43,601 bases of DNA from assembly GCA_026025795.1 (NCBI GenBank), contig JAPEUG010000112.1, positions 1 through 43,601 on the forward strand. The letters are read 5' to 3'. The DNA comes from Thelocarpon superellum. Lineage: Eukaryota. A program made the position numbers and the translations under genes. The notes under the pieces were generated by a model. It had not been told where the DNA came from and searched no databases. It worked only from the letters and a program-made list of their open reading frames with translations. Positions 9,702 to 14,004 of this stretch are shown in pieces (the stretch's first letter is position 1; each line of letters opens with the position of its first letter).

Positions 9702-12302
9702 GGGCGTTCAGCGGCCCCCGTCGGCCTGACCGTGCCGCGTCGTGATCAGACAAAGGGAGTGCGTGCAGGTGCGTGCAGAATGGAAGGGGTAGTCAGTGCT
9801 CTGTCCGAACAGTGTTCTTCACTGGTTGACCCGCCGGGTCGGTCGACAGAGCGAGTTCGACTGGAGATGAGCAGTGACGATGGCCGAGCGACGCAGGAGC
9901 GAACTCAACGCAGAAGATCAGGGTGATGCACTAGGAAATACAGTGCTGGGAAGACTCAAGACTCGACACCGCGAGCGGGTAGGGACAGGGCGACCGAGCC
10001 ACAGCCTTATGCGAGACTGGTGATGTCGTCCTTCACCGACGGAACTAGTGCGGCCACGCGACGGTCGGCTCAGAGAAGTGCTGGAAGCGTCGGTGAGGGA
10101 AGGGCAGCCGTCGGTAGGCGCAGTCGACGTTGCTTTGAGGCAGCCTCGAGGCCTGTGGGACACCGAGGGAATGACCAATGGTATGGTGCCAGTACTAACA
10201 TACTCGTAGTACCAGTACCAGTCTTCCTACCGTTTCCACGGTTCGTCGCCGGCCGTAGGTGATTTCCAACGCCCCGTTTGTCGGAATTTCCCCTCCCTAA
10301 CCCCGCCAAAGGGCGAGTAAGACGACTAAGCTCGCCACAGCCGAGTACTATTCCAGCTCCTCGCGCCGCGGACCGGGGAGCCATGACGAGATCTCCACCG
10401 GTACCCATGCCTCCATCGATTGTTTCAATACTAGGGTCGAAAAGCGCCATCTTCATCCGCCGTTTCCAGAAGAATCCTGAAGACGCGACGGTGCATTATT
10501 GCCTCCACACCACGTGTGGAGTGTGCCACCCAGATGCCCAAGAGATCGCAAATGGAGCATTGTCTCCGGCTCAGATACCGTGTCCTTCCTCCTACATGCG
10601 GCAAGACATGGAAACCGTCGTCTTGCGCCCTTGGCGAACCACCTGATGCTTGGTTCGCATGTGTTCATCTTCGGTACATCTTCATGGTTGTCCAGTAGTC
10701 GTGACGTTGAGTACAATACATGCATATCCCAAAGCCTCGTAAGGCCTCGTAAGGGCTCACCCAGACGACGCCATGCCGTCGCGAAGGTGGATCCATCCTT
10801 CACCGGATGTAGGGTAATTTGGTTACGAGGTGAGCTGTGTGAGCTCTATGAGTCAGGACCCAAGCCTGCCAGACAGGTGATTCGGAAAAACTCTGGGCGA
10901 CGGATACCTCGTCGATACGATGAGAGACTCCATTGTCAGGTGCACAGACCATTCGCCTCTTTCGCGTCACGTGTTTCTGGCACAAAGTGTCTTTGGCCGA
11001 TTCCTGCTAGATGATCCGAACTGGAGCTGCTTTGGATCTACTCTGCACAGACAGCTTTGATGTTGGCAGGCACACTGTGACTCTTGGAGGATATCTCTCA
11101 GTTCATCCTCCTACCTAGAACTTGTGTTCTGCCAGTGGACCAGCAATATGCAATCACATGTCACTCAGTGCGCAAATGTGCAAGATACTCTGCACTGACA
11201 TGCATGTACTAGATCATGGGTATTACATGCATCACAATCGCCTTCAGTATCAGACAAGGAATACTGACACCATGATAATGCCCAAGCATTTCATCATGTC
11301 CTCGTTTTGGGTGAAGATGCTTAGCCTTCTCAGCGCCCGACCTTTCATTCCATGTGCCTGAACATTGGCCTTGAGTCACGATAGGGCATCACTGCAGAAA
11401 CATTCGGTCTGTGAAGGGTCATCCAGGGGACTGTTGAACTCCAAATACCGTCGATCTGGTGAGGCAGGCTCTCTACACAACCAATCCCAGACTTGAACTG
11501 GTTACACCCATCTCTCCCTGTATCGCATCAGCGCTGTACTTGTGGCTCTCATATGTTAGCGGTACGCAGAGGTCCTCTCACGGACGAGGGAGTGCGGGTG
11601 CTGCCCCGCCAGCACCATTCGTAGCCCGTAGCGGCCCAGGTGGGCGCTTGTCACCTTTCAGTGTCCTGCGGCAGAGCCTTGATGCACAACGTGTGTGCAG
11701 AGATGCGAATGTTGTGCAATAAGCTGATAGGTGACCAATCACGAGCACGACTGGTACGTCCGGGGTCTGCGCTCGTCCGTACGGTCGGAACGAGTCTCAC
11801 GGACGCTCCGATACCGATAGCGCCGAAGCAATGGGTTGTTGCGGGATTACTCGCCGTCGGAGGTGGCAGGCTGGGTACAAGAAGGGCGGACGAGAGCTGC
11901 AGCGCCGTCTAAATTCGGCGAATCGAGCCAATCAGATGGCGAGCGGGCGGAGCTAGGCGGTCGGCTAAGCCATGACAACAAACAGAACGCGAGGCGTGTT
12001 GCCAGCCCAGACACCCCGGAAACGGAGCGGAGGAGCACATCCCCGTAACGAGTGGTCGACGCTCGTACCATACAAGTACGTGGTCAGGTCAACGCCGACA
12101 GCGCGAGCGCAATCGCTTCCTCCCTCCCTATCGCCTTCCACCGCTTGCCGTCTCCTCGTCTCTCGTCTCTCGTCTCTTCTCCTCTCCAGCTGACCATCCG
12201 AACATCCGAACATCCGACCAATTCACCCGCTGTCCAACCCCGTGGCCTCCATCCATTCCAGCCTGCCTGCATTGCTGCAGTTCTGCCTCACGGCTTCATT
12301 GC

Positions 12303-12347
12303 ATGAGACTCGCACCCCACCCATTCACCAGACTGAAAGCCGAGTGA
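12303..12347 (+). promoter_or_regulatory. Short upstream ORF (MRLAPHPFTRLKAE*) in the putative hex-1 leader
   Basis: Only ATG between 11975 and the first hex-1 intron; 14 codons plus TGA. Whether it lies inside the transcript is unknown. Confidence 0.35.
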
Positions 12348-12495
12348 TAGAACGTGTTGCTGGCAACTCGTCAACTTCACCTTCTACCTCCCCTTTCAGA
12401 CTTTCTTCTGAAGACAGTCCCTTCTTGTCTTCCTTTCGAATTGTTACCATAACGGTTCGAAAGGCATTCGAGAAGAGACCCCCCACGTCTTCAAG

Positions 12496-14004
12496 CTGGA
12501 CTTTGGTAGGTGGTGCCCGACCGATTGCGTCGGACCCATGGCTCACTCCTCGTCCGTGCACAGACGCCCGAGTCCCGGTGCCCTTCAGGTATGTATAGGC
12601 ATGAGTGAGGGCGAAGGTGAGGATGCCGTGATGTCCCATCGCTGACCCGTCCAGTGTCTTCCCGTCGTCGTACCGGAGCGACGCTGAATCGTCAACTACA
12701 AAAGTCGAGGTAGAGGGTCAAACCGACCTCCCTGCTCGGACTTCGCGCGTCGGACGGGAAGACCGCTACAGCTCCATCTCCGCCACCTTGCCTCGCCGCC
12801 GTCAGGAGCGCGTGGAGGAGGAAGACGTGAACGTCTACGAAGGAGAAGACCGCCGACGCCGCGACCCGTCCCGACGTCAGGAAGTCATCATTGAAGAGGA
12901 ACGCCACCGCCACCACCGCTCGCCCCGAGTTGAAGAGCGCCGTGAGGAAGTCATCATTGAAGAGGATCGGCACCGCCACCACCGCTCGCCCCGATTCGAA
13001 GCACGCCGCGAGGAGGTGACCGTGATCGACGAGGACGAGCGCCGCCATCACCATCATCGTCCGCACCACCGCCACCATCACCACGACCGCGAACAGTAAG
13101 TCCCGCGGCGGCCACGGGGCTCGCGTGGCATGCACGTGCTGACCGTGCTCCTAGCTACCACGAGACCGACCTCAAGTTTGAGGGAGACGAGCTTGACGTG
13201 ACGGAACGGGACTATCGCCACCGCACGCACCCGCGCTTCGCCGAGTACGCCGAGGAGTTTGAGCGCGACTACTCGACCGAGCCTCGTCGCACGACTGACT
13301 TTGAGATCCGCGAGGAAGTGACGTCGACCGTTGATCCGCCCCGTCGCGAACGAGACAGCATGGGCTACTATGACGAAGACGGCGAATACCACTCCTTCCG
13401 CCACGGTGTGCACAAGGCGGCCGACCGACTGCTTCATCCGCACCACCCACGCAGCACCGTGCGTGAGGAGATCCACGTGACGGAGGAGGAGCGCTATCCG
13501 CGGGATCACCACCGTTCAGCGCGAGAGGAAATCGTCGTGTCGGACCGACGGCATTCGACCAACACGATCACGATCCCGTGTCATCACATTCGCATCGGCG
13601 ACCTCGTCATGCTTCAGGGCCATCCGTGCCAGGTGATTCGGATCACGACGTCGGCCCAGACGGGACAATACCGCTACCTGGGCGTGGACCTGTTCTCGAA
13701 GCAGCTACACGAGGAGTCCAGCTTCATCTCGAACCCGTCGCCGTCGGTCATCGTGCAGAACATGCTCGGGCCCGTCTTCAAGCAATACCGTGTCCTGGAC
13801 ATTCGTGACGATGGCCGCGTCGTCGCCATGACAGAGACGGGGGATGTCAAGCAAGGACTGCCGGTGATTGACCAAGGGGGCTTGTGGTCACGGTTGAACG
13901 ATGCCTTTGCCCACGGCCGTGGCAGTGTGCGTGTCATGGTGATCCACGATCGTGGTCGTGAGCTGGCCGTTGATTACAAGGTGGTTCACGGATCTCGCCT
14001 GTAG
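12496..14004 (+). CDS. hex-1: Woronin body major protein Hex1, long isoform (putative CTG start); exons 12496-12505, 12564-12588, 12655-13095, 13155-14004
   Basis: Three GT-AG introns with branch points (12506-12563, 12589-12654, 13096-13154) join LDFDARVPVPFSVFPSSYRSDA... in frame to the Hex1 core. In-frame TGA at ~12409 and no in-frame ATG between it and 13360. Confidence 0.7.
12881..13050 (+). repeat. 66-nt (22-aa) tandem repeat in the Hex1 extension, two near-identical copies plus a degenerate third
   Basis: GAAGTCATCATTGAAGAGGA... at 12881 and 12947, degenerate copy at 13013; encodes EVIIEEERHRHHRSPRVEERRE-type units. Confidence 0.85.
13360..14004 (+). CDS. hex-1: Woronin body major protein Hex1, canonical short isoform (214 aa)
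   Basis: Diagnostic MGYYDEDG start, eIF5A-like core TIPCHHIRIGDLVMLQGHPCQVIRI...YLGVDLFSKQLHEESSF...AMTETGDVKQ, and C-terminal PTS1 -SRL. Confidence 0.97.
   Translation: MGYYDEDGEYHSFRHGVHKAADRLLHPHHPRSTVREEIHVTEEERYPRDHHRSAREEIVVSDRRHSTNTITIPCHHIRIGDLVMLQGHPCQVIRITTSAQTGQYRYLGVDLFSKQLHEESSFISNPSPSVIVQNMLGPVFKQYRVLDIRDDGRVVAMTETGDVKQGLPVIDQGGLWSRLNDAFAHGRGSVRVMVIHDRGRELAVDYKVVHGSRL

Follow-up and report, generated by a model that had tools for sequence, protein, structure and literature searches.

Woronin bodies plug the wounds of fungi, and their crystal is built by Hex1. In 25 years of work, this defining Woronin body protein has been treated as one of about 19-25 kDa. Another fungal peroxisome-related protein reportedly has an isoform from non-AUG initiation, according to the title of a 2020 paper, and isoform gain by a non-AUG start is what we propose here for hex-1. 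Conserved non-AUG N-terminal extensions have been described more widely in fungi, for example in Neurospora crassa cpc-1 (Ivanov et al. 2017, mBio, PMC5487733). There, two proteoforms arise by leaky scanning as far as the annotated AUG, and the same is proposed for hex-1. The hex-1 locus resembles them in its in-frame AUG-free extension and its conserved near-cognate codon in good context, but differs in that the extension is very long (216-359 codons among orthologues and 227 in the DNA analysed here), lacks AUGs in every frame, and follows a conserved hairpin. No link of Hex1 to a non-AUG start was found in the literature, and the terms hex-1, Woronin and peroxisome are absent from the main text of PMC5487733, as distinct from its supplementary list.

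Isoforms of Hex1/HexA itself are reviewed in a paper on Verticillium dahliae Hex1 (PMC7762394). Both start from MGYYD, and alternative splicing of an intron 3' of that AUG makes them differ by about 20 residues. Long annotated N-terminal extensions are treated as annotation errors in the same paper. As in that case, one hex-1 gene here would provide two N-terminally differing isoforms with a common crystal-forming core and PTS1; in contrast, 227 residues lie upstream of the AUG and the proposed route is translational. A further related element is the 'hexA motif' (Li & Breaker 2017, PMC5640933), described in passages of that paper as a long hairpin with internal loops in the hexA 5' UTR or an intron, followed by a conserved tail in which conservation is weakest at each third base. 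These passages mention a 3'-splice-site-like sequence, propose splicing control and leave the function open. The locus studied here likewise has an interrupted long hairpin upstream of hexA and a tail with 3-nt periodic conservation, but we propose a start codon, which those passages do not.

The window analysed is a stretch of 43,601 nucleotides from Thelocarpon superellum (assembly GCA_026025795.1, contig JAPEUG010000112.1, positions 1 to 43,601, forward strand). The gene of interest is hex-1/HexA (Woronin body major protein) of this lichen-forming ascomycete. Judged from its sequence and that of its orthologues, the conserved hex-1 layout points to a CUG-started long Hex1 plus an AUG-started short Hex1, a reading to which we assign a probability of roughly 0.8. 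The Hex1 core has the eIF5A-like two-domain organisation (PF21485, 28.6 bits against a cut-off of 27.1; PF01287, 28.8 bits against 24.2; both in exon 4) and, with single-exon pieces of the window as search queries, shows 60-84% identity with named Woronin body major proteins. Its N-terminus, MGYYDEDG, opens a 214-residue Hex1 and carries the hexapeptide MGYYD(D/E) described as conserved in Hex1 (PMC7762394). At the other end, the translation of 13156-14001 finishes in GSRL followed by TAG, which places the PTS1 at the C-terminus. Since Hex1 already has this signal, the extension is not needed for targeting. A reading of the conserved N-terminal peptide as a PTS2 was also rejected: judged by eye, it does not fit the PTS2 consensus R/K-L/V/I-x5-H/Q-L/A.

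Table 1. Features of the hex-1 locus in the T. superellum window.
Feature	Positions	Strand	Remarks
Possible uORF, 14 codons	12303-12347	+	Stop 12345-12347; T at -3, weak context; out of hex-1 frame
In-frame TGA closing the hex-1 frame 5' of the CUG	12409-12411	+	
Conserved leader hairpin	12417-12479	+	From folding and orthologue comparison; probably the published 'hexA motif' (passages of PMC5640933)
Putative initiation context, TTCAAG-CTG-G	12490-12499	+	CUG 12496-12498; A at -3, G at +4
Exon 1, coding part (L D F and first base of D)	12496-12505	+	X2 contig match stops exactly at 12505
Intron 1, 58 nt, GTAGGT..CAG	12506-12563	+	1 ATG; removal restores a peptide contiguous in orthologues
Exon 2, 25 nt	12564-12588	+	
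Intron 2, 66 nt, GTATGT..CAG	12589-12654	+	4 ATG
Exon 3, main share of the Arg/Glu/His-rich extension	12655-13095	+	No Pfam domain
Tandem repeat, 66 nt (22 codons), in frame	12875-13014	+	2.1 copies, 89% matches; within the extension
Intron 3, 59 nt, GTAAGT..TAG	13096-13154	+	1 ATG
Exon 4, last 68 extension codons and canonical Hex1	13155-14004	+	ATG 13360-13362; SRL 13993-14001; TAG 14002-14004

The original prediction, made from the letters alone, had placed a CTG start in the context TTCAAG-CTG-G behind a frame closed by a TGA near 12409 with no ATG after it, had joined 227 open codons to MGYYDEDG across three consensus introns, each containing ATGs, and had ended the frame in a PTS1 -SRL. 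The locus bears this out (Table 1). The interval between the TGA and the CTG is without ATG, and removal of three GT..AG introns, every one with at least one ATG, joins four exons in frame into a 441-codon ORF terminating in SRL-TAG. The claimed absence of ATGs from the 681 spliced nucleotides before the canonical ATG, which are in frame with it, also stands: none occurs in any frame, where base composition would predict about 6.2. A CTRAC-like branch site can be read in each intron, and the spliced N-terminus equals a peptide found intron-free and contiguous in many orthologues, so the gene structure is more than chance. No family match was found for the extension in Pfam. The deposited 431-aa model of this gene appears to take a forced ATG from intron 2 (12623). 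Further upstream, the ATG at 12303 is the only one within 193 nt 5' of the CTG and may or may not be transcribed; no counterpart of its uORF is kept in the aligned orthologues.

Annotated genes of other fungi carry the same N-terminal module. As the original prediction had stated, long Aspergillus HexA models with an LDFDARVP motif behind poorly conserved N-termini do exist, and those of Penicillium and Onygenales likewise have the module behind unrelated, forced N-termini. It is present in long models of Lecanoro-, Dothideo-, Leotio-, Geoglosso-, Xylono- and Eurotiomycetes, whose N-termini are mutually unrelated, which is the outcome expected from forced AUG starts. No Sordariomycete is among the matches listed (120 in each of two listings), and the arrangement may therefore be absent from N. 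crassa, in which Hex1 was defined.

The putative start codon was compared across an orthologue set of 80 loci from metagenomes. The conserved N-terminal peptide occurs in 65 of them, and every one of these begins it with CTG. All 55 loci that match the peptide pattern have the CTG and an A at -3; an in-frame stop precedes the CTG by 12-141 nt, with no in-frame ATG between. When a nucleotide pattern with the first codon left free was used instead, 63 motif matches were preceded by CTG. The one true exception is locus L045, where CAG in this position is an intron acceptor and a CTG in the same context stands directly before a GTATGA intron. Over columns -110 to +5 of 37 non-redundant sequences, the only invariant positions are A(-3), CTG, G(+4) and A(+5), although these sequences are related and the counts overstate independence. 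As a control, we took eight Leu positions that are invariant in the Hex1 domain across the 37 loci; each is encoded by four to five different codons, with CTG in 50 of 258 cases. Thus, a near-cognate codon at the LDFD position and its Kozak context are conserved, as the original prediction would have it, and free synonymous variation of the start Leu, against which it was to be weighed, is absent while control Leu codons vary.

Conservation of another type begins at this codon. From codon 2 onward residues are conserved, each with 2-8 synonymous codons, whereas codons -4 to -1 lack amino-acid conservation, so that the near-cognate codon in its strong context marks the 5' edge. Frames are open across the whole extension in 21/21 distinct sequences, and in less diverged pairs most changes fall at third positions (45 versus 20 and 16, for example). 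In the leader, indels among orthologues are not multiples of three, and the window's conserved leader block is offset by 2 nt from the CTG frame. Such comparisons show that the in-frame extension, with its upstream stop and no AUG, is conserved in the manner of protein-coding sequence.

The AUG depletion downstream of the CUG is conserved as well. The 21 distinct open extensions (648-1077 nt) contain neither an ATG in any frame nor a Met, whereas shuffling of their synonymous codons gives 51.9 ATGs in total and no fewer than 35 in any of 300 shuffles. By comparison, out-of-frame ATGs are not depleted in the main CDS (123 observed, 95 expected). Furthermore, 19 spliced transcript-like contigs are free of ATG from their 5' end to the canonical AUG, including 147-334 nt 5' of the CUG. 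An ATG is present at -135 to -148 in several lichen loci (L003, L011/12, L015/16/20/22 and L031). If transcribed, these and the ATG at 12303 in the window form short uORFs, and the leader is then not AUG-free in every species.

Transcript-like sequences of relatives contain both the leader and the extension in spliced form. Contigs L033, L036, L046 and L050 lack a 178-nt GTAAGT..CAG intron held by the genomic contigs L039 and L048, and are collinear with the genome up to their 5' ends. Because they also include the in-frame stop, an upstream AUG exon, which would have spoken against the original prediction, is excluded in those relatives. For the species itself, two sequencing runs share small parts of the window (0.10 and 0.07 of words), leaving most gene parts without cover, and these short pieces are uninformative on expression level or transcript ends. 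One run, X2, taken as RNA by a guess from its record, has a 180-nt contig identical over 12333-12505, including the TGA; the match stops exactly at the predicted exon-1 donor, and the letters of the contig are identified up to that point, short of the joint between exons 1 and 2. The other, metatranscriptome run X1, has a 176-nt contig of depth 2 with two differences that covers 12520-12695 unspliced. It could be DNA or pre-mRNA and gives no support for splicing.

The leader has a structural feature of its own, which the original prediction had not included, nor had it linked the locus to the published and unexplained 'hexA motif'. About 90 nt 5' of the CTG are conserved at the nucleotide level, and in the window the MFE fold has an outer stem separated by an internal loop from an inner stem of 15 bp, which is capped by a 3-nt loop. 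The 3' edge of the hairpin lies about 16-18 nt before the CUG (16 in the window). When folded separately, each of the 37 leaders gave an MFE fold in which a single helical domain prevails; 32 of the folds have one hairpin loop and 5 have two or three, and dG lies between -15.9 and -40.6 kcal/mol. Counted for a structure that we specified ourselves, 82.7% of hairpin cells are paired versus 27-61% for slid partners, and 8/15 pairs have changed on both sides. RNAalifold returned no consensus structure for the leader alignment, which is attributed to misalignment of divergent clades by MAFFT. Shortly downstream of the CUG (-12 to +90, 32 sequences) it gave only four pairs at -2.38 kcal/mol; no conserved downstream structure like a START-type hairpin, about 14 nt after the start, was found in hex-1. 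Rfam 15 has no match within 12100-13400. Going by the text description in the passages of PMC5640933 cited above, the window hairpin is probably the published 'hexA motif'.

Several other explanations must be weighed against a CUG start followed by leaky scanning. The long form might be CUG-started while the short Hex1 comes mainly from separate shorter transcripts with an internal start site. One clade hints at such a source, since contigs L035, L041, L047 and L054 either start inside the intron of 351-362 nt that lies 5' of the last coding exon or keep it unspliced, and a separate short transcript starting there could supply the short isoform. However, L043 and L053 of the same clade are full-length and spliced, the short contigs may represent pre-mRNA or assembly fragments, and the corresponding intron of the window is far shorter (Table 1). 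The loss of AUGs from all frames of the 21 extensions is, moreover, difficult to account for if ribosomes need not scan as far as the canonical AUG, and we consider separate transcripts unlikely as the main source. It is more doubtful still, and very improbable, that the extension obtains its AUG from another exon farther 5' or through an alternative splice close to the hairpin. The sequence TCTTCAAG/CTG of the window can be read as a weak acceptor, and splicing control is what the motif paper proposes in the passages cited. Nevertheless, an AG immediately 5' of the CTG is missing from most orthologues (GTCAAT and GTCAAC, for example), and TTCAAG/CTG was rejected as a 3' splice acceptor on this ground. 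In addition, the genome-collinear transcript contigs of relatives hold the in-frame stop and no AUG upstream, the X2 contig is contiguous across its whole match, and the annotated N-termini have nothing in common upstream of the module.

Conservation for RNA function rather than protein, with the region serving as an untranslated structured regulatory leader, would agree with the nucleotide conservation and covarying hairpin fold of the 90 nt 5' of the CTG. This too is very improbable, as codon-type conservation takes over 3' of the CTG, where the open frames, the synonymous variation and the third-position changes stand against it and where a consensus structure was not found by RNAalifold. 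The extension could also be started in the same frame at another near-cognate codon, or by internal entry driven by the hairpin, with the CTG kept merely as Leu. Between stop and CTG, some sequences do contain an in-frame AAG, ATC or ATT, but these codons are not conserved. Only 12 nt separate stop and CTG in L074, and none of the three codons there (CCA GGC AAT) is near-cognate. An ordinary Leu codon should vary like the eight controls, and L045 keeps its CTG despite an intron between it and the rest of the ORF; we regard a start elsewhere in the frame as extremely unlikely.

Initiation at the CUG, with leaky scanning past it, would work as follows. The hex-1 mRNA would begin with a leader of about 150-330 nt, followed by the open extension in frame with the MGYYD start. 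Translation of the extension would start at the invariant CUG in its strong context and yield a long Hex1 of about 441 aa, whose first residue would be Met, as near-cognate starts are generally read by initiator tRNA as Met. Those 40S subunits that pass the CUG would encounter their first AUG, whatever the frame, at the canonical start, from which the 214-aa crystal-forming Hex1 would be made, and both products would carry the PTS1 -SRL at their ends. From the layout we infer the ribosome start at the CUG, the production of both proteins from one mRNA by leaky scanning, and the existence of a ratio between them that this sets. In the original prediction, the long form would be the minor product and would act as a core-modifying subunit. 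The stable hairpin 5' of the CUG would belong to the same unit and may set the frequency of CUG use; its role, like that of the long isoform, is suggested by position and conservation. More speculatively, and with considerable doubt, the hairpin might act as a 'backstop' that refolds behind the scanning 40S subunit as the CUG enters the P site, raising near-cognate initiation. An effect of downstream hairpins on near-cognate initiation is known, and an upstream backstop would be its mirror image. In that case helicase activity, temperature or stress, for instance, could tune the long:short ratio, and the long isoform, which would not fit into the crystal lattice, might cap or tether the Woronin body core.

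For genome annotation, gene callers that accept only AUG systematically mis-annotate the hex-1 locus, as in the 431-aa model of the window. If the dual-start reading is true, it would account for the long, mutually unrelated N-termini of database HexA models, which PMC7762394 regards as noise, and would provide a role for the orphan 'hexA motif' RNA. It would also provide an unusually clean natural case of near-cognate initiation combined with a very long AUG-free coding leader. The module is also present in Aspergillus genes, which opens the case to tests in Aspergillus models. For Woronin bodies, a conserved Hex1 isoform of 45-60 kDa would be an unrecognised component of their assembly or tethering, and if it does cap or tether the core, it would count as a structural component so far overlooked in most Pezizomycotina, Aspergillus and Onygenales among them.

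The original prediction was that one hex-1 mRNA yields a Hex1 of about 441 residues started at CUG and, by leaky scanning, a 214-residue Hex1 started at AUG, and in the window every detail of the observation behind it is real. The CTG at 12496-12498 stands in the context TTCAAG-CTG-G, and its frame is closed upstream by a TGA at 12409-12411 with no ATG between the two. Three short GT..AG introns (12506-12563, 12589-12654 and 13096-13154), all with good donor, branch and acceptor sequences, leave 227 codons in frame ahead of the canonical ATG and 441 in total. Whichever frame is read, ATG does not occur in the 681 spliced bases of this extension, where base composition predicts about 6.2; the introns have one, four and one, respectively. 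The exon 4 product carries the eIF5A-like domains PF21485 and PF01287 (Pfam). The extension matches no Pfam family, is rich in Arg, Glu and His, and is most conserved in its first 22 residues. It includes a tandem repeat, the unit of which is similar to the variable region directly after the canonical AUG.

Features of the hex-1 locus in the window
Feature	Position	Strand	Remarks
hex-1/HexA gene	12490-14004	+	sequence reading
Exon 4, canonical Hex1 from ATG 13360	13155-14004	+	MGYYDEDG N-terminus, C-terminal -SRL then TAG
Possible uORF, 14 codons, weak context	12303-12347		ATG 12303; 148 nt upstream of CUG
Long hairpin with internal loop	12417-12479	+	fold; 3' end 16 nt before CTG
In-frame 66-nt tandem repeat in extension	12875-13014		2.1 copies, 89% matches; encodes Arg/Glu/His-rich unit

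The start codon is conserved across orthologues. Metagenome contigs were scanned with exon 4, and the best 80 of 295 confirmed relatives were taken as orthologous loci (L-numbers below). A pattern for the N-terminal peptide that demanded Leu at the first position found 55 of the 80; each of these begins with CTG, has A at -3 and is preceded at 12-141 nt by an in-frame stop, with no in-frame ATG between. Because this pattern had required Leu, a second search used a nucleotide pattern with the first codon unconstrained, and CTG preceded the motif in 63 matches. Matches in L037 and L052 lay at unrelated positions. In L045 the CAG before the motif is an intron acceptor, and a CTG in the usual context (GGCAAC-CTG-G) directly abuts a GTATGA intron, so the codon is retained even where its exon contains no other coding triplet. 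Counting L009 as well, the motif is present in 65 of 80 loci, always with CTG (65/65); in the remaining 15 either the contig is short and truncated or introns interrupt the motif. The position of introns within the first 10 codons differs by clade, falling right after CTG in L045 (L045:2660-2740), after codon 8 in L029, L034 and L044, and after codons 3 and 11 in the window, and the CTG and the spliced peptide are kept in every case.

After removal of near-duplicates, 37 sequences including the window were aligned from -110 to +5, and the only invariant columns were A(-3), C, T, G, G(+4) and A(+5). Free synonymous variation at the start Leu was looked for and is absent there, but it is present at eight invariant Leu positions of the Hex1 domain in the same 37 loci, which use four to five codons each (CTG in 50 of 258). 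These sequences are related by descent and the counts are non-independent events, yet the control positions share the same tree and vary. In 32 orthologues contiguous in the region, the residues after CTG are conserved with 2-8 synonymous codons each (eight for Arg, three to four for Pro), and the amino acids of the four codons ahead of CTG are not conserved.

Downstream of CTG, the frame is open for 648-1077 nt to the canonical ATG in all 21 distinct intron-free sequences, and changes between members of the less diverged pairs fall at third codon positions roughly two times as often as at either of the other two (e.g. 45 vs 20 and 16; 85 vs 33 and 30). The 150 nt upstream include indels of 1, 2, 4 and 5 nt. 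A block about 20-95 nt upstream of CTG shows high nucleotide conservation, and in the window it is offset by 2 nt from most relatives (stop at -46; many others at -48). Given this offset against the CTG frame, the 'HSRKDA' conservation in annotated models is that of a translated RNA element, not of a protein.

The predicted AUG depletion is also borne out: none of the 21 extensions has an ATG, whether in frame (as Met) or out of frame, against a total of 51.9 out-of-frame ATGs in synonymous-codon shuffles within each sequence (minimum 35 in 300 shuffles). The same shuffles of the canonical coding part revealed no depletion (123 observed, 95.1 expected). Such depletion would be expected of an extension that scanning ribosomes have to cross before they reach the canonical AUG. 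In 19 transcript-like contigs, the 147-334 nt from the 5' end to CTG are likewise free of ATG. The 14-codon uORF of the window is not conserved; in some lichen loci (L003, L011, L015 and L031) an ATG at -135 to -148 opens a uORF of 2-12 codons, the placement of which in transcripts is putative.

In minimum free energy folds of the 95 nt upstream of CTG, one helical domain dominates in 37/37 sequences. The number of hairpin loops is one in 32 sequences and two or three in five; dG ranges from -15.9 to -40.6 kcal/mol vs -9 to -25 for shuffles. In the structure as we named it, 82.7% of cells pair vs 27-61% with slid partners, and 8 of 15 pairs have changes on both sides. MAFFT misaligned the clade of L034, L043, L044 and L053, in which a central CG/GC is swapped in both arms, so the pair count understates covariation. 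In its account of the 'hexA motif', Li & Breaker 2017 (PMC5640933) describes a long hairpin with two internal loops in hexA 5' UTRs or introns, followed by a conserved tail varying every third base; splicing control was proposed and the function left open. The tail, as described there, can be explained as the beginning of the CUG-initiated reading frame. A search for conserved structure downstream of CTG found none, so the classical aid of a downstream hairpin does not apply; we suggest that the upstream hairpin might refold behind the 40S subunit and thereby favour CUG recognition. Two more nucleotide-conserved leader or promoter blocks occur among lichen-type relatives (window 12351-12375 and 12243-12265), one a GTGTTGCTGGCAAC-like near-palindrome and the other TTCCATTCC, close to the 5' ends of relatives' transcripts; short CT-rich repeats occupy 12149-12217.

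One alternative to a CUG start, an unlikely one, would be an AUG supplied from elsewhere. The top database match of exon 4, 100% identical, is the window's own deposited model, P0003, a 431-aa 'hypothetical protein' from a Thelocarpon superellum metagenome-assembled genome. It opens with 'MP' and then runs into exon 3; we infer a 5-nt first exon, ATGCC (12623-12627), within intron 2 and a 27-nt 'intron' (together window 12623-12654), a start that looks like an artefact of an AUG requirement. A spliced upstream AUG exon was sought in transcripts of relatives. A 178-nt GTAAGT..CAG intron present in the long genomic contigs L039 and L048 is missing from four short contigs (L033, L036, L046 and L050), which are collinear with the genome to their 5' ends. 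These four are therefore spliced mRNAs in which leader and in-frame stop are followed by the CTG, the extension and the core, without any such exon attached. Another clade shows in-frame removal of an intron that interrupts the coding sequence for the conserved N-terminal peptide (L043 vs L034). Two sequencing runs match the window itself, both weakly. In X2, whose record is a guessed 'RNA?', a 180-nt contig is identical to 12333-12505 and ends exactly at the predicted exon-1 donor, a hint, not a strong one, of splicing there; in the metatranscriptome X1, a 176-nt contig of depth 2 spans 12520-12695 unspliced and may be DNA or pre-mRNA. In one clade, short contigs (L035, L041, L047 and L054, vs L044/L034) begin in or retain a 351-362-nt intron preceding the last coding exon, which could reflect an internal promoter or merely pre-mRNA.

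Long annotated models with the conserved N-terminal peptide occur in Lecanoromycetes, Candelariomycetes, Lichinomycetes, Coniocybomycetes, Dothideomycetes, Leotiomycetes, Geoglossomycetes, Xylonomycetes and Eurotiomycetes. Many Aspergillus, Penicillium and Onygenales proteins were among the matches listed in a search centred on a Talaromyces model. In the original account, long Aspergillus HexA models hold the motif behind poorly conserved N-termini, and all five examined (A. fumigatus, A. niger, A. flavus and A. terreus included) hold the peptide behind unrelated N-termini. The full motif is present in 11 of 16 long models examined; the other five join the extension further down. Sordariomycetes were absent from the matches listed, which does not prove their lack of it.

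The Hex1 lattice is dense, so a disordered arm of 227 residues would probably be excluded from its interior, and a surface role of the long form in capping or tethering is plausible. The literature on Woronin bodies and Hex1 searched with non-AUG, CUG, near-cognate, leaky scanning and 'hexA motif' proposed no non-AUG start for Hex1/HexA, and the main text of Ivanov et al. 2017 (PMC5487733) does not mention hex-1; a Verticillium dahliae Hex1 paper (PMC7762394), in its remarks on the subject, regards long database N-terminal extensions as probable annotation errors. Comparative and transcript evidence supports the original interpretation well, with translation itself predicted, and hex-1 would be a well-supported case of a near-cognate-initiated N-terminal extension with leaky scanning. 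This known type of system would here operate in a prominent gene, and the CUG start would also account for a published orphan RNA motif.
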